A program made the translations under genes and the position numbers. Below, in pieces: positions 18,319 to 28,506 of a DNA stretch of 43,789 bases (position 1 is the stretch's first letter; each line of letters begins with the position of its first letter). Source of the stretch: a virus (taxonomy: Duplodnaviria > Heunggongvirae > Uroviricota > Caudoviricetes); IMG/VR virus record IMGVR_UViG_2623620497_000008, positions 1-43,789 of that record; one strand, given 5' to 3'. The notes beneath the pieces were generated by a model. That model had not been told where the DNA came from, made no database searches, and saw only the letters and a list, made by a program, of their open reading frames with translations.

Positions 18319-19521
18319 TTAGCCTCGTTTAGACCAGAATTCCTGCGCGGCCTGATTCATACCGGCAATGGTTTTAACAGTGGTGGCAGTCTGCGTTTGC
18401 AGGCTGTCGACGGTTTTGGTATTGCGGTTTTTAGCCAGCTCAGAAACAGCTGTGAAAGCCATATCCACCGTGGCTTTTTTCAGCTTGCTGATATCGGCAT
18501 CACCGACAATAGAGCGCACCAGAGATTGATCGGCAGAGGCGAGCACCTGACGCTTGAATGCTGTCGGCTTCGCCTTTTCTGGCAACTGGATGCCTGGCTG
18601 AATCAGATCGGCACGGTAAGCGGCGTCGCCGGTAACCTTACCCTCTTCTTCCTTTTTCTCCTCTTCGTCCTCGGCATCGCCGGTTCCAGGAGCAGTTGCC
18701 GCAGGCGTGAGTTTGGCCACCGCCTCAATCAGCGCCTTACCCCATGCAGGAATTTCTTCCTCGGCATCGCCGGTTCCAGGCAATGCCGGGCCGGGAAGCG
18801 GATTTTGCGGCGCAAGGTTGATGACCACTCCGCCAGGTGTCATAGAGGTCGATACGTCGTTATCGCCCGTGACATCATCAGGCGGGTTATCAATGAGACT
18901 TGCCATTTCGGCAGCGTCCCCGGTTTTACGGGCCTTCAGGAGCCGGGTAAACCAGTTTTTAGTAGTGCTTGGCATAGAATCCCCTATTGCACAACGGAAA
19001 CCGGCCCGCCCGTTAGGGACAAGGGCCAGATGGTTAGCGGTAATCGCAGATTGCTTTGCGAGACCAGGTGAAATCTGTTCGTAATCGGCGTCGTACCCGC
19101 AGCTGACCTCGTCATCACCATCATCAATTGCCTGCAGGGCTTCCGGGGTTTTGACGATGACATCAGCCAGCAGCAGATCGGTTTTATCGTCCGTGCCACG
19201 TCGTACGTTCTGGATGTGCCCGTGAGCCAGCTGGCGCCAGTTATCAGGGGTAACAAAGATGATCTGCCCGTCAAAATCTCGCGGATGGCCGATAGTGACT
19301 GCCATTCCTTCGAATGACGCCATGGCTCGCTCGCTGAACACCTCTTCTGGCGTCCGGCGTACGATGACCTTCCCTCTGTCGTTTGGGACAAGCTCAGGCC
19401 GCTCTGTGGCGTCGTACTCCAGCTCACCAGTCCTTGCGATCGGGACGTCCTTAAACAGGACTGACCCATCAGTAAGTTGAAAGCGAGTATTACCCAGGCG
19501 GGTTTTAAAGAAATATTTCAT
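18319..19521 (-). CDS. head scaffolding-like protein with acidic repeat region
   Basis: 400 aa; internal PGTGDAEEE repeats; upstream of capsid genes. Confidence 0.55.
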
Positions 19522-19544
19522 GGGTTACCTGCTGAATGGCGGGC

Positions 19545-19570
19545 AAAGAAAAGGCCGCTGAATAGCGGCC
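19545..19570 (-). terminator. rho-independent terminator (GGCCGCU-AUUC-AGCGGCC + UUUUCUUU) after the head-module moron
   Basis: Perfect 7-bp inverted repeat 19553-19570, A-run 19545-19552 on plus strand. Confidence 0.45.
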
Positions 19571-19576
19571 TCGTTG

Positions 19577-19999
19577 TTAGTTACTATTTAATCTTTCTCG
19601 TAATATCTTGGCTTTCTCAAGCTTTACTTTTGCCGATTCGAGAGTTTCTCTTGCTTGTTGCACCCTCCTGGCATCCTTGTTTGGATTATTTCCACGCCCT
19701 CCCCAGTCCGGGCTAGATATCCTTTCCCAAGCTTGTTTTGCGGATAATAAATAGCGTTCAGCACCTTCCACATCAGAGGCATTTCTTAACCACTCTAAAT
19801 AGAAATTGGTAGCTTCTTCACAATTTTTTAAGAAATTCTCAATATCAGATTTTCTTGTTTTCCCCGTTGGCAGCGAGAATGGGCACCATTCAGATTGCTC
19901 TAGGGGTCTAAAATACCAAGAATATACCCATTGCCCGTTGATAAAATCGCGTTCATGGGTGAATTCTAACCCGTTAAGCTTATGTATGTTTTGCTTCAT
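19577..19999 (-). CDS. hypothetical protein (140 aa), low-GC moron between head morphogenesis and scaffold genes
   Basis: ATG 19997-19999 with AGGGA upstream; AT-rich codon usage unlike neighbours. Confidence 0.55.
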   Translation of the reverse strand: MKQNIHKLNGLEFTHERDFINGQWVYSWYFRPLEQSEWCPFSLPTGKTRKSDIENFLKNCEEATNFYLEWLRNASDVEGAERYLLSAKQAWERISSPDWGGRGNNPNKDARRVQQARETLESAKVKLEKAKILRERLNSN

Positions 20000-20030
20000 T
20001 TGCTATCCCTATCGAGTTGTTACTAATGCA

Positions 20031-20783
20031 TTATTTTCTAAACTCAGGGATCTGCACTTCTGGCCAGCAATCGCAGTTCGGCAGGCATCCGGCGTGTCCG
20101 GTCATGCCGTCAAGCGTTGGCGGGTTATCCCAGCGCACAAATTTATCTTTCATTCCTCGGTGCGATGGCCTGGTACCAGCCCCCTTGATGCGCCACCAGT
20201 ACCCCTCAGAGCCAACTGACAGCGCCCGAGCCTGAGTTAATGCGGTAGTTGCGCGGCCTATCTCAGTGCGGGCTATCATCCGCGCCCTGCTGGCCGCCAC
20301 GTCACCGGATTGCATGATCATCTCGTAAAGCTGATCTGGACGCTCACCATGGATGACAGCCTTTATCGCACGCTCCTGAATCTCCCTGACACGTCCGGCC
20401 GCCTCTAATGGCAAAGATTTCATATAGCGAATCTGCCGGTAAACGGTGTCTTGTGCCACCATGCCGACAGGAGTGTTACTAATCACGTCACGCAGACCAG
20501 CGGATATTTCTTCCGAAACAGAGCGCCACTGATTCCACTCTTCACGCTCCACCTGGGCAAACATCTTTCGACCGACCATTTCGGCCCAGTCGTCGATCAC
20601 CCCGGAGTAGTCAACAAGCGATTTAGCAATGCTCTCAGCGCTTGCCTGTGAACCATCGTAGGAACCCGTGACGATTTGATTTATCTGGTCGACTATCGCC
20701 AGTAGGCTTTTCTGATACTGGACCTCCGATCGGCGGCGGAGGGCTGGTTTCAGATTCAGTCTCCTGCCACTGTTTCGCCGCAT
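20031..20783 (-). CDS. head morphogenesis protein (Mu F / SPP1 gp7-like)
   Basis: C-terminal region resembles Mu F-family minor head proteins; start uncertain (GTG 20813, ATG 20798 or 20783). Confidence 0.6.
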   Translation of the reverse strand: MRRNSGRRLNLKPALRRRSEVQYQKSLLAIVDQINQIVTGSYDGSQASAESIAKSLVDYSGVIDDWAEMVGRKMFAQVEREEWNQWRSVSEEISAGLRDVISNTPVGMVAQDTVYRQIRYMKSLPLEAAGRVREIQERAIKAVIHGERPDQLYEMIMQSGDVAASRARMIARTEIGRATTALTQARALSVGSEGYWWRIKGAGTRPSHRGMKDKFVRWDNPPTLDGMTGHAGCLPNCDCWPEVQIPEFRK

Positions 20784-22086
20784 TCTGGATATCCTCATCG
20801 CTAATTGAAGCACCGATGCCGGTAACGTCAGACAGCTCGCGCAAATCAGTCAGAGCAGCAGCCGGCGACATGCCCAAATCACGCACCGCGGTTGCAAGAG
20901 CGGTAGTTGTGTTGGTTGCCACCGTGGAGCGATCGGTGTCGCTCATCTGCCACAGGGGGTTAAACTCAAAGGTGAAATCTTGCGGCAACGGCTCGCCAAA
21001 CTCTGAGCGATGCAGTACATCGAATAACAGGCGGATGTGAGGCCGTAAATCTCGCTCCTGAAGCGTTCCAACGTCGTCGTAGTAGTTCGCGAGGTCAGCG
21101 TCACCGGTTGAAAAACCCTTCGGTGACTGGCGGAACAGACGGACAAGAGGAATGCCAACAGCACCCGCGATATCCTCTTTAAACTCGCTAAGCAGGTCAG
21201 ACAGGCCCGCGAAAGAATAGGAATGTGTTTCAAATTCGTCCTCCGAATCAAACAGGGACATACCCTCGTTCGTCTGGTACTGGCGAACTAACTCCATTTG
21301 TTTAACCAGCGCTTCGAATGGTTTACCGCCCATGGCGATAATTTCACGCAGCTTTTTAATCTTTGCCGTTCGCAGATGTGCCTTGTAGGCAAGCTGGGCG
21401 GCGCCGACGCTGGTGCTATCGTAGGAAGTCAGGCGATCGAAGATGCGCTCGACAATGGACATGCCCCACTCGTTTTCGGTGATTTTCTGCTGGTAGGGCA
21501 GTTTCACACCATCCATGCGAATCAGTCGGCTGTGGTGAACGGTCCACGCAGGAAGCCCCTGCGCCGTCGTCACGATGTCATAGAATTCTGGCTTGCCGAG
21601 ATTGGGGCCAAGCGCCTTAATGCGCCTGGTGAGCTGTGGGTTAATCATCCAGCGGTCAAGTACAGCCAGACCTTTAAAGCTGCCCTTGCCAACCTTATCC
21701 AGCACCAGCGGCGTCAGCGGTGCCTGACCTTCAATCAGAATCAGCGCCACCGCCCCGCCATACAGCCGGGACCATTTCAGCGTCTCGTTGATGCAATCCC
21801 AAAGCTGAAGCTCATCGAACCGTGATTCCAGAATGCCACGACGTTTCGGGTCAATCTCACTGGTGATCCGCACGCCCTTTTTGGTCATATCGTCCGCTTT
21901 CGAATCGACTGCGGCACCAATAATCCAGGAGGAACGATAAGCCCACTCGATGAGCAGGCGGTTGCGGCTGGTATAGTTCGCCCTGTAGGTCGATGCGGCA
22001 TGCTGGTTAGGCTGCTGCATTCCGACACGGGCAACAAAGTTATCGTACGAATCCGCCGTGGCGACTCGTCCTGTTTTCTTCGCCAT
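20635..22086 (-). CDS. portal protein
   Basis: 483 aa; ATG with GGAG upstream; located between terminase and head morphogenesis genes. Confidence 0.75.
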   Translation of the reverse strand: MAKKTGRVATADSYDNFVARVGMQQPNQHAASTYRANYTSRNRLLIEWAYRSSWIIGAAVDSKADDMTKKGVRITSEIDPKRRGILESRFDELQLWDCINETLKWSRLYGGAVALILIEGQAPLTPLVLDKVGKGSFKGLAVLDRWMINPQLTRRIKALGPNLGKPEFYDIVTTAQGLPAWTVHHSRLIRMDGVKLPYQQKITENEWGMSIVERIFDRLTSYDSTSVGAAQLAYKAHLRTAKIKKLREIIAMGGKPFEALVKQMELVRQYQTNEGMSLFDSEDEFETHSYSFAGLSDLLSEFKEDIAGAVGIPLVRLFRQSPKGFSTGDADLANYYDDVGTLQERDLRPHIRLLFDVLHRSEFGEPLPQDFTFEFNPLWQMSDTDRSTVATNTTTALATAVRDLGMSPAAALTDLRELSDVTGIGASISDEDIQNAAKQWQETESETSPPPPIGGPVSEKPTGDSRPDKSNRHGFLRWFTGKR

Positions 22087-25092: not shown

Positions 25093-25359
25093 CTATTTTT
25101 TTATGTTTTCGAAAGTGGCTTCTACCATTTTCTTTCCAAACTCACCCATATCTTTATACATAACCTTTAAAAAGTTAATTGTGTTTGACGCTGCACCTTC
25201 CAATTTCCATTTACATGCAATAAAATTACAATTAATTAAATTAAAAGGCTGCAATCCTTTATATACAATTTCGCAATTTTCAAAAACGCACTTTTCGAAA
25301 TGGTTGCCATCCAGTTCGACGACAGTATTATTAAAAGTGCTTGAAATAAATTTATTCAT
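25093..25359 (-). CDS. small Cys-containing protein (88 aa, four Cys), AT-rich cassette gene 2
   Basis: ATG overlaps the stop of gene 1 (ATGA); low GC. Confidence 0.55.
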   Translation of the reverse strand: MNKFISSTFNNTVVELDGNHFEKCVFENCEIVYKGLQPFNLINCNFIACKWKLEGAASNTINFLKVMYKDMGEFGKKMVEATFENIKK

Positions 25360-25664
25360 GTTAATTCAAAGCCTTGCGTTGCATCAGTATCCTTGACATC
25401 ATTACCGATCATTTTACCATTGGCCTGCATGAATCCTTTATCGTTGCTATAATCGCTTGGAGCATAAAGTGCAACATGATTAAAATTCAGCGTCAAAAAA
25501 AACACTATTACAAGCCCTGCCGGGAAAAACATTAAAAACCAAAGATATGTACTTTGTTGGGAATCATTAAGAAAAGGTAATACGAGGTTTGCAGAGACCT
25601 CTACTATCCCCGCAAAAATACCGATAATCGTTAACGGGTTTTTTATGTGGTTTATCGCGGACAA
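25356..25664 (-). CDS. small membrane protein (102 aa, two predicted TM), AT-rich cassette gene 1, TTG start
   Basis: TTG 25662-25664 preceded by AGGAGGG at 7-nt spacing. Confidence 0.55.
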   Translation of the reverse strand: MSAINHIKNPLTIIGIFAGIVEVSANLVLPFLNDSQQSTYLWFLMFFPAGLVIVFFLTLNFNHVALYAPSDYSNDKGFMQANGKMIGNDVKDTDATQGFELT

Positions 25665-25694
25665 CGCAGAACCCTCCTGAAATCATTTAGGGGG

Positions 25695-25703
25695 ATTATA
25701 TCA
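25695..25703 (-). promoter_or_regulatory. extended -10 promoter element TGaTATAAT driving the AT-rich cassette
   Basis: Minus-strand TGATATAAT about 30 nt upstream of the cassette start; no good -35. Confidence 0.35.
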
Positions 25704-25761
25704 GCAACTAAATCAAAGAGCATCATCATAGGCAATAATTGAATGCCAGTTGTCATGCTTA

Positions 25762-25995
25762 TCATTTTGGAATGGTGACGGCTGTTGGTTTCTGGCAGTT
25801 CGCCTGCCAAGCTTTGTTATGCGCCAGGATGTCGCGCTTGGTCTGCTTATCCAGCACGTCGATGTCGTGGTCGGTCAGGTAGATGATCCGCACCCAGCTG
25901 CAGGCCGTATCAACGACTACCGGGGCGGGTAAACTTTTCGCGCAGCTCCCGATCAACATCGTCATCAGGCATATGGCTAACGGTTTGCTGTACAT
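25762..25995 (-). CDS. o-spanin (Rz1-like outer-membrane lipoprotein), overlapping the i-spanin gene
   Basis: ATG 25993-25995 with GGAGG 8 nt upstream; lipobox-like LIGSC; out-of-frame overlap with i-spanin 3' end. Confidence 0.55.
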   Translation of the reverse strand: MYSKPLAICLMTMLIGSCAKSLPAPVVVDTACSWVRIIYLTDHDIDVLDKQTKRDILAHNKAWQANCQKPTAVTIPK

Positions 25996-27638: not shown

Positions 27639-27713
27639 TGGCGGGACAGGAAGGATTCGAACCTTCTACCATTCGGTTAACAGCCGAACGCACAACCGCT
27701 GTGCTTCTGACCC
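27639..27713 (-). tRNA. tRNA-Asn (anticodon GUU), phage-encoded
   Basis: 75-nt cloverleaf read by eye: acceptor GGGUCAG/CUGUCCC (one U-U mismatch), D-stem GCAC/GUGC, anticodon stem UUCGG/CCGAA with loop CUGUUAA, T-arm GAAGG-UUCGAAU-CCUUC, discriminator G, encoded CCA. Confidence 0.7.
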
Positions 27714-27720
27714 TGAAATG

Positions 27721-27747
27721 AAAAAGCCCAAGGCGTTAACCTCGGGC
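27721..27747 (-). terminator. terminator-like hairpin (GCCCGAGG-UUAACG-CCUUGGGC + U5) immediately 5' of the tRNA; candidate tR'-like element
   Basis: Inverted repeat 27726-27747 with A5 27721-27725 on plus strand. Confidence 0.4.
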
Positions 27748-27816
27748 TTGAATTCTTTATGTGTCGACAATCGAAGCTATGGCGACGATATCAGATTTAC
27801 ATGAAATATATGCCTT

Positions 27817-28506
27817 TCAGTTCGGTTTTGCAAGACTTACATCTAAATTTGACGCCTTTTGTTGTGAACGTGATCGCGTTACCGCCATGAGAGCGTCGCT
27901 ATCAAGCTTCACAAAACTGCTGCGCAGCGCCAGCCAATGAGGGAGGTAGGTTTCTGTCCATGTGGACTTTGCTACACCAACCAGCTCCGCCAGCGACTGG
28001 TATTCATACGTCTCCCGTCCTGCCAGCTCGGCTTTGACGTCCTGTGCGGCCAGCCAGATAAGTTGACAGAGGCGATCGACTGTTTTCTTTGCAATGCGCA
28101 CACCGGCCAGCTTGTCGCTGAATTGCTCCCATGCCCAGCGGGTTATCGTCTCCTGGTGCTCCCAGCGGATATTGTCGCTGTAGTTCCACAGCAACCAGGA
28201 TTTCTGGTGGTCTTCCAGCGACAGGAGGGCGCGACGCCAGCTGGCTGTCGAGTATTCAACGGGCAGAACGAGAGCGATTGAGGAACCCTTAGCGCGGGAC
28301 TGGCTGCCGCTCATCGGCGGTCCATCCGGGTTAACCATTTTTTGCTTCACCTCGCTATATACCTTCTTCCGGCCACGGCTGCGCGCCGTAGCGGTAAATT
28401 GCGCGTTCTCTGCAAGAGCTACCAGTTGCCCTTTCGTCGCACCACTCAGATCGGCGGTGGCCACTATCAGCTGCTGGCGAACAAATTCCAAGTATTGAGC
28501 TGTCAT
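27817..28506 (-). CDS. Q: late gene antiterminator Q-like protein
   Basis: 229 aa; position between the nin-like region and the lysis cassette. Confidence 0.6.
   Translation of the reverse strand: MTAQYLEFVRQQLIVATADLSGATKGQLVALAENAQFTATARSRGRKKVYSEVKQKMVNPDGPPMSGSQSRAKGSSIALVLPVEYSTASWRRALLSLEDHQKSWLLWNYSDNIRWEHQETITRWAWEQFSDKLAGVRIAKKTVDRLCQLIWLAAQDVKAELAGRETYEYQSLAELVGVAKSTWTETYLPHWLALRSSFVKLDSDALMAVTRSRSQQKASNLDVSLAKPN

Follow-up and report, generated by a model that had tools for sequence, protein, structure and literature searches.

Lambda bor and lom are morons of lambdoid phages, and the late operons of lambda and phage 82 contain internal terminators that are read through by Q-modified RNA polymerase. 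The moron in the sense of Juhala and Hendrix, exemplified by HK97 gene 15, is recognised as extra DNA of deviant GC content that has a promoter and a terminator to itself and is active in the repressed prophage (Cumby et al. 2012, PMC3594210). Small genes are also found beside MuF-like head genes: behind 89% of MuF toxin genes lies an open reading frame (ORF) of fewer than 150 amino acids (aa), presumed to be the immunity gene, and a small downstream ORF also follows 25% of the short MuF genes (Jamet et al. 2017, PMC5576092). Here we analyse ORF140, a small gene in the head module of IMG/VR record IMGVR_UViG_2623620497_000008, a lambdoid temperate Klebsiella phage or prophage whose whole analysed stretch of 43,789 nucleotides (nt; ~43.8 kb) is called the window below. 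We propose that ORF140 works as a gene but can be dispensed with, being cargo, or a moron if the term is taken broadly, that occupies a slot between the MuF-like and DUF2213 genes that takes alternative inserts and carries its own conserved terminator-like hairpin.

A cargo slot in the head module

The structural half of the window is 90-97% identical to the Klebsiella phages Mulock, GZ7, RCIP0034/0098 and Wanchaivirus PDP110P2 (Hendrixvirinae), and likewise to several ST11/ST16/ST405 prophages. The head-module genes are ordered TerS, TerL, portal, MuF, ORF140, DUF2213, cement protein and major capsid protein (MCP), and the description of ORF140 in the initial annotation as a low-GC gene of 140 aa between the head morphogenesis and scaffold genes agrees with our measurements and with the Pfam assignments of the neighbours (Table 1). 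Its GC content is 0.404 and its third-position GC (GC3) 0.376, compared with 0.55-0.58 and 0.57-0.70 for the MuF, DUF2213, portal, cement and MCP genes, and homologues at other loci are low in GC too. All 13 of the Klebsiella relatives in GenBank, among them Mulock and GZ7, whose recorded source is wastewater or hospital sewage, align over the flanks at 92-97% identity yet lack exactly the ORF140 segment (458 nt); in the junction alignment with Mulock, PDP110P2 and GZ7 this reads as the replacement of a single C by 459 nt. Exact junctions in IMG/VR are empty in 48 contigs and occupied by ORF140 in eight (48/56 empty). ORF140 is thus extra DNA relative to close relatives, as had been claimed, and not a head component conserved in all of them, since 17 of the 93 censused loci, and no GenBank relative, contain it. 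It is missing from many phages with the MuF/DUF2213/PF09950 head module, all of which would be expected to encode a core head protein, and no homology to a known head or packaging family was found in Pfam or PHROGs. Its absence from most relatives, together with homologues outside head modules (see below), indicates on comparative grounds that ORF140 is dispensable, and cargo rather than a head component. Both the extra DNA and the deviant GC content expected of a moron (PMC3594210) are thus found here. The idea of an inserted moron holds as far as an AT-rich, non-core gene is meant; a one-off insertion is contradicted, since homologues fill the same slot in diverged head modules.

The width of the slot was surveyed by fetching 80 further loci with the DUF2213 protein and measuring the MuF-to-DUF2213 gap in 93 loci altogether, which gave a range of 3-934 nt and at least eight cargo types. 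Gaps of 3-14 nt contain neither hairpin nor cargo (SEN34, Hafnia yong1, E. coli 611R5 and locus L189), and gaps of 49-69 nt (32 loci) contain the hairpin without cargo in 29 of 32 cases. The wider gaps hold a 64-71-aa ORF placed after the hairpin (249 nt), a conserved AT-rich element without coding content that extends up to the hairpin (~261 nt, at least 12 loci), other small ORFs (302, 332-341, 460 and 477 nt), ORF140 (509-516 nt, 17 loci), an HNH endonuclease (773 nt; phrog_374, E 7e-74) or composite inserts (743-934 nt). The cargo classes are AT-rich, with a GC content of 0.39-0.50 against 0.52-0.56 in the flanks, the sole exception being the 249-nt class (0.56). By this census and the IMG/VR junction counts, and as judged from the genomes compared, the slot is a cargo hot spot with at least eight alternative occupants, ORF140 among them.

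Some of the other occupants deserve description in their own right. The ~261-nt element, seen in IMG/VR prophages (L150:3240-3500, L153:3240-3500 and L172:3239-3500), contains no ORF of 45 aa or more and has the conserved blocks CGAAATGTTATGAAAATGTTGT and GGACATTTTAATCGAGTCCATTTTCG.CGGTGCGGGTAAGAACC.TTATGTTAAATAG; it is also embedded within composite inserts, has no match in Rfam, and is a candidate for a phage-encoded small RNA. The 64-71-aa ORF (MKKVHIESKRAGDRRVIEISIGG...) between the hairpin and the DUF2213 start, which matches nothing in Pfam or PHROG, is present in Klebsiella phage ST16-OXA48phi5.2 (L002:3027-3221) and also in L135, L144, L146, L178 and others. The HNH endonuclease (214 aa, L173:2795-3439) lies in the slot upstream of the hairpin, which suggests that the slot may also be open to invasion by homing-type elements.

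The slot hairpin

Directly behind ORF140, starting 4 nt after its stop codon, the minus strand reads GAGGCCGCU-AUUC-AGCGGCCUU and then UUCUUU, the U-tract being UUUUCUUU. The perfect 7-bp hairpin with a U-run that had been noted after the gene was confirmed: the stem has seven perfect GC-rich pairs, or nine if A-U and G-U pairs are counted, and folds with -16.1 kcal/mol (z = -3.1; 0/200 shuffles fold as well). Across 25 distinct relatives the pairing is kept in 93.6% of cells, and in five of the seven pairs both sides have changed in a compensatory way, as seen in GGCCGC/GCGGCC, GGUCGC/GCGACC and GCUCAC-UUCG-GUGGGC; none of 500 shuffles reaches the observed values, and the signal collapses when the registers are slid. 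The hairpin always lies ~25 nt upstream of the DUF2213 start codon. With its GC-rich stem-loop, directly following U-tract and conserved structure it has the form of an intrinsic terminator, and by these tests of folding and covariation it is a selected structure, more than chance would give. In an Rfam scan of the region the hairpin matched the Trp leader at chance level (E 0.61), and nothing else was returned.

The same hairpin is found where ORF140 is not. In the empty slots of Mulock, PDP110P2 and GZ7 the MuF stop (AAAAUAA) is followed by C, AGGCCGCC-AAUG-AGCGGCCUUUUCAAUGCCCGC, the ribosome-binding site and AUG; in ST16-OXA48phi5.2 the hairpin is kept after MuF and the different ORF, there of 64 aa, lies downstream of it; and in further loci it stands downstream of unrelated cargos. 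As a feature shared by empty and differently filled slots, the hairpin belongs, on this comparison, to the slot and not to ORF140, so that its designation as the gene's own terminator does not hold. In SEN34, yong1 and 611R5 a tight 14-nt junction has neither hairpin nor cargo, and the 3' part of the spacer that follows the hairpin in the window recurs in the hairpin-less phages of the SEN34 type. A first reading, in which the hairpin was ancestral and ORF140 inserted, was dropped in view of these tight junctions and of deep lineages with both ORF140 and the hairpin. As both are missing from the tight-junction lineages and both present in the deep lineages that carry ORF140, the hairpin-only state seen in the closest relatives of the window could be a secondary loss.

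The ORF140 protein family

Purifying selection and the range of its relatives mark ORF140 as a genuine gene, belonging to a family without annotation. Compared with the K. oxytoca allele, which is 77% identical, the ratio of nonsynonymous to synonymous substitution (dN/dS) is 0.20 (synonymous sites are saturated in deeper pairs, with dN 0.34-0.42), and an exhaustive HMMER profile search recovered 48 clusters at 50% identity, nearly all of 135-160 aa, where a word-indexed search had returned only close relatives in Klebsiella and Citrobacter. The family alignment has G10, P32, A63 and Y67 in common and a loop motif PD(W/F)DPGG-R-NNP(G/N)K. The initial annotation had called for structure prediction, and an AlphaFold2 (AF2) model of the protein is confident, with a predicted local distance difference test (pLDDT) score of 89; it has an N-terminal beta-sheet (residues 3-41) and helices at 50-58, 60-74, 77-95 and 106-139, with the conserved loop PDWGGRGNNPNK placed between the last two predicted helices. 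The protein is basic (pI 8.9), and family members are mostly so (pI ~9). No family match and no catalytic domain was found in Pfam, NCBIfam, PADLOC or PDB sequences; the defence-protein models of PADLOC-DB v2 gave no match, a fold search in BFVD gave nothing at E < 0.03, and blastn of the insert against phage genomes gave no match. An AP2/integrase-arm DNA-binding fold, which had been considered, is neither favoured nor disfavoured by the fold search. The sole PHROG match is a weak one to phrog_5570 (E 0.018), a family of unknown function, and a match to a designed tetratricopeptide repeat (TPR) protein (E 2e-4) was dismissed as helical-repeat noise.

Most of the recovered homologues occupy the same MuF-to-DUF2213 slot, with flanking portal, MuF and DUF2213 proteins only 42-57% identical to those of the window. 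Homologues sharing the slot in such diverged modules are 42-77% identical, which points to an old association. In L174/175 the MuF and DUF2213 proteins are 91% and 81% identical and ORF140 only 50%, a pattern that points to cassette exchange of ORF140 alleles by flanking homology and weakens a claim of strict co-divergence of ORF140 with its flanks.

Other homologues lie elsewhere. In eight IMG/VR prophages the gene is found between Rz and TerS, behind an AT-rich intergenic region of 280 nt; in Vibrio phage Va_90-11-286_p16 it is in an accessory region adjoining transposase and RelE/Phd genes; in Vibrio crassostreae it lies between AlpA and the integrase of an island whose other genes include VapE, GmrSD and AAA_15/DUF3696; and it is present on a Rep3/ParAB plasmid contig of Enterovibrio and in chromosomal contexts. 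Moreover, an ORF140-like domain forms the N-terminal residues 1-150 of myxobacterial EVE + NOV_C (PD-(D/E)xK) proteins from Hyalangium versicolor (P0059/L050:4004-5512; 502 aa, annotated by NCBI) and Myxococcus xanthus (P0060; 612 aa), with hhalign probabilities of 99.95-100% between the ORF140 family and the fusion N-termini; a metagenomic relative has a degraded copy. This distribution speaks against a role in head assembly and argues for an autonomous binding module of mobile elements that in one clade would be part of a predicted modification-dependent nuclease. No conserved partner gene was found beside the distant homologues, except a 179-186-aa neighbour in two myxobacterial-type loci, and a 399-aa neighbour in a metagenome-assembled genome (MAG) of Desulfobacterales was ruled out as a DUF2213 homologue. 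Weak TmtA or PDC-S36 matches in PADLOC concern only the NOV_C part of the myxobacterial fusion. The N-termini of the EVE + NOV_C family are highly variable, with ORF140-like, PF26345, PF26340 and HNH-containing variants.

Expression of the cassette

The leader of ORF140 is 31 nt long and has a Shine-Dalgarno sequence GGGA at 20009-20006, 7-10 nt upstream of the ATG. A -10-like hexamer AATAAT lies at 20035-20030, where it covers the MuF stop codon (20033-20031) together with the first inserted base, and 30 nt separate its end from the ATG; the cargo-less relatives have AAUAAC at this site, without the final T. With a -10-like hexamer defined by A2, T6 and at least four of six matches, each of the four independent leader types has one whose end lies 30-34 nt upstream of the start codon: AATAAT in the window, CATAAT in its closest relatives and in the Citrobacter type, AATAAT in L016, TATTAT or TATCAT in L036, L043 and L041, and TAATAT in L047. 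By background frequency 0.023 such hexamers are expected per position, which makes 0.11 for a 5-nt window in each lineage. Reasonable -35 elements accompany the hexamer in distant alleles (scores 7.7-8.6, at or above the 99.98th percentile). Independent transcription of ORF140 is plausible from these signals, and in the window phage would be weak at best. The leader also contains AATGCAT, in one copy in the window and as a tandem duplicate in the eight nearest IMG/VR relatives (L018-L026); the gap measures 509 nt in the window against 516 nt in these relatives, and the distance of the -10-like hexamer is unchanged.

That Q-modified polymerase transcribes the slot late is plausible by analogy, because a Q gene is present and lambda provides the paradigm. 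The part of the initial annotation that had the downstream head genes rely on Q-mediated readthrough may thus stand, with the Q gene upstream of the late region.

Features of the slot and its surroundings

Table 1. Position of the slot, its elements and the adjoining genes in the window.
Feature	Coordinates	Strand	Evidence and remarks
Q antiterminator gene	27817..28506	minus	Lambda-type; PF06323 E 1e-81
MuF-like minor head (head morphogenesis) gene	20031..20579	minus	182 aa from ATG 20579; PF04233 E 2e-12, phrog_324
Cassette leader	20000..20035	minus	Shine-Dalgarno and -10-like hexamer; promoter-like site, weak score
Stretch extra relative to 13 cargo-less Klebsiella phages	19572..20030	minus	459 nt in place of 1 nt (C)
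ORF140	19577..19999	minus	140 aa, ATG start; between MuF-like and DUF2213 genes
Intrinsic-terminator-like hairpin and U-tract	19545..19572	minus	Stem 19572-19551, U-tract to 19545
Conserved spacer and ribosome-binding region of DUF2213 gene (GCCCGCCAUUCAGCAGGUAACCC)	19522..19544	minus	Junction alignments
DUF2213 (Pa193_gp24 family) head maturation protease/scaffold-like gene	18319..19521	minus	PF09979 E 1e-35, phrog_1961/530

The MuF-like gene is of the short form, without a C-terminal toxin domain. A mechanically called MuF ORF (GTG start, 260 aa; 20031-20813) overlaps the 3' end of the portal gene by 179 nt; translation probably begins instead at the ATG at 20579, from which the gene is annotated or called in relatives. 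The DUF2213 gene is the first gene downstream of the slot hairpin. In the middle of its product (window 18600-18850, minus strand), repeated acidic P(A/G)TGDAE(D/E)E motifs, with TGD motifs that are invariant in an alignment, separate a protease-like N-terminal domain from the C-terminal part.

Further upstream on the minus strand, Q and a terminator-like hairpin precede tRNA-Asn, after which come the lysis genes and, behind these, the genes for packaging and the head. That hairpin, a strong one (CAAGCCCGAGGUUAACGCCUUGGGCUUUUUC, 27720-27790), lies between Q and a single tRNA-Asn(GTT) at 27639-27713 in a tR'-like arrangement; Mulock has four tRNAs at the site of the single one. A second low-GC island is present in the interval from the lysis to the terminase genes (25093-25800, minus strand; GC 0.36 over 25201-25800), with two small ORFs of 88 and 102 aa that have no convincing Pfam match. 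The L029-type ORF140 homologues of other prophages occupy this same interval.

Discussion

We propose that in lytic growth ORF140 would be carried within the Q-antiterminated late transcript, which would read through the hairpin into the scaffold and capsid genes, and that in the lysogen any transcript from the putative weak cassette promoter would stop at the hairpin, giving an mRNA of ~0.5 kb and leaving the capsid genes insulated. The product would be a soluble, basic, non-enzymatic two-domain protein that binds nucleic acid or a protein partner, and its role may lie in phage-host or phage-phage conflict (exclusion, defence or counter-defence) rather than in head assembly. To this explanation as a whole, comprising the cargo gene in its slot, its inferred expression and its inferred conflict function, we assign a probability of about 0.6; the last part taken by itself, a non-enzymatic binding protein engaged in conflict, is tentative and held with low confidence. 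Several points weigh against it. A sigma-70 scan of this strand found no promoter, the position weight matrix (PWM) scan of the window scores GTGCAG-16-AATAAT at an unremarkable 3.45, and the -35 GTGCAG is poor, so that ORF140 may be made only late; the independent expression suggested by the initial annotation thus has the hexamer, conserved in every lineage, in its favour and these results against it, and is weakly supported. The chance of the hexamer recurring in four lineages, ~1e-4, is to be discounted, as the position of the -10 window was picked after seeing the data. Most known homologues do occupy the head slot, which possibly reflects a head-linked role, the EVE-nuclease fusion counts in effect as a single event in the evolution of myxobacteria, and the assignment of function is guilt by association. 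As for the hairpin, it may either have predated the ancestral cargo or have arrived with it.

The position of ORF140 could also be taken to mean that it is a facultative virion or head-assembly accessory protein, made from the late transcript only and packaged with, or acting beside, the MuF-like protein. One version would make it an internal, ejected DNA-binding protein shielding the incoming DNA, for which P1 Dar and T4 IPI* are the comparison cases. The place between MuF and protease/scaffold is kept in head modules that are as little as 42-55% identical, the protein is basic, the leader is only 31 nt long with no convincing sigma-70 promoter in the window, and the arrangement from MuF to ORF140 is transcriptionally continuous with a late operon that has a Q gene. 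However, most close relatives, including the phages sourced from wastewater and sewage, do without ORF140; a plasmid and islands carry homologues far from head genes, and a fusion to a nuclease is also known; the slot is filled as well by unrelated cargos such as the non-coding element and the HNH endonuclease; and no PHROG head family is similar. We therefore regard a virion role as unlikely, if still worth keeping in view. The immediate vicinity of the MuF gene recalls another role, that of an orphan immunity protein whose former partner was a MuF polymorphic toxin, since a 140-aa ORF directly after muf is just what is seen behind 89% of the toxin genes (PMC5576092). This idea was rejected because the neighbouring MuF proteins have no toxin domain: every one that adjoins an ORF140 homologue is short (177-260 aa, PF04233 only, no C-terminal extension). 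Small ORFs moreover follow a quarter (25%) of the short MuF genes too (PMC5576092), and the family also occurs far from any muf gene, which leaves an immunity function very improbable.

How the gene came to be where it is, and why it is kept, can likewise be read differently. A recent, self-contained moron with a private terminator, inserted into an otherwise uninterrupted head operon, would account for the low GC, for the clean presence or absence of 458 nt against phages 92-97% identical, and for the terminator directly downstream. It is nonetheless quite unlikely: the hairpin in cargo-less relatives and behind other cargos contradicts a private terminator, the 42-77% identical homologues in the same slot of diverged modules speak for an old association, and with deeper lineages carrying both ORF140 and hairpin the empty close relatives may equally represent loss. 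Nor is there much to be said for a neutral or selfish passenger, kept only since the slot tolerates insertions, although the slot takes many unrelated inserts, is often empty, and no function could be assigned from family searches. Purifying selection (dN/dS 0.20), the conservation of length and motifs across ~48 clusters from enterobacteria to myxobacteria, and the lack of any mobility function of its own make it hard to credit. A cargo gene under selection, as proposed here, is preferred over these readings, and ORF140 is best filed, as far as its genomic context goes, as a moron-type cargo gene and an ordinary example of its kind, in a slot that is newly delineated but unsurprising.

A bolder and more doubtful extension of the proposal takes the ORF140 family, built of a beta-sheet and a helical hairpin with the conserved loop at its apex, as a new portable conflict module, borne by phages, plasmids and islands and fused to an EVE reader and PD-(D/E)xK nuclease in myxobacteria, with the MuF-to-scaffold slot and its terminator as a dedicated landing pad that would also receive a hitherto undescribed non-coding RNA of ~261 nt; the stand-alone domain would then be an exclusion or counter-defence factor binding nucleic acid or protein. 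The points of most interest are the conserved terminator of the slot, its non-coding element and the EVE-nuclease fusion. Pfam, NCBIfam, PHROGs (by function) and PADLOC all leave the family unannotated, and a function for it would annotate homologues in phages, plasmids and islands of several bacterial phyla. Clinical K. pneumoniae genomes commonly contain Klebsiella temperate phages of this type. Should susceptibility to phages or the fitness of the host be changed by ORF140 or its slot-mates, the slot would be a compact marker of prophage-encoded traits, and it would also offer a handy place, insulated by nature, at which cargo could be engineered into such phages.

Comparison with known systems

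Like the morons of lambdoid phages, ORF140 is extra DNA of low GC content inside a late structural operon when set against close relatives, a small gene of apparently non-structural function followed by a predicted terminator, in a phage with Q-type late antitermination. It differs in that its terminator is common to the slot rather than private and in that a private promoter is only weakly indicated; furthermore, HK97 gp15 is an inner-membrane protein, whereas ORF140 appears soluble (no long hydrophobic stretch by eye; no transmembrane or signal-peptide prediction was run). With the immunity ORFs of MuF toxins (PMC5576092) it shares a length below 150 aa, the lack of known domains and the place right after a MuF gene that follows the portal gene, but the MuF beside it has no toxin domain and the family is also found without a MuF neighbour. 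In the EVE + NOV_C proteins, which are predicted modification-dependent nucleases, an ORF140-like domain serves as the N-terminal module and other members have unrelated N-terminal domains, whereas the phage domain stands alone with no nuclease partner nearby. Finally, the slot hairpin resembles the lambda-type late terminators in being a GC-rich stem-loop with a U-tract inside a late unit and with a Q gene (PF06323) upstream, and is unlike them in that this predicted terminator is positionally conserved with covariation, lies directly upstream of a protease/scaffold gene and marks a cargo slot.

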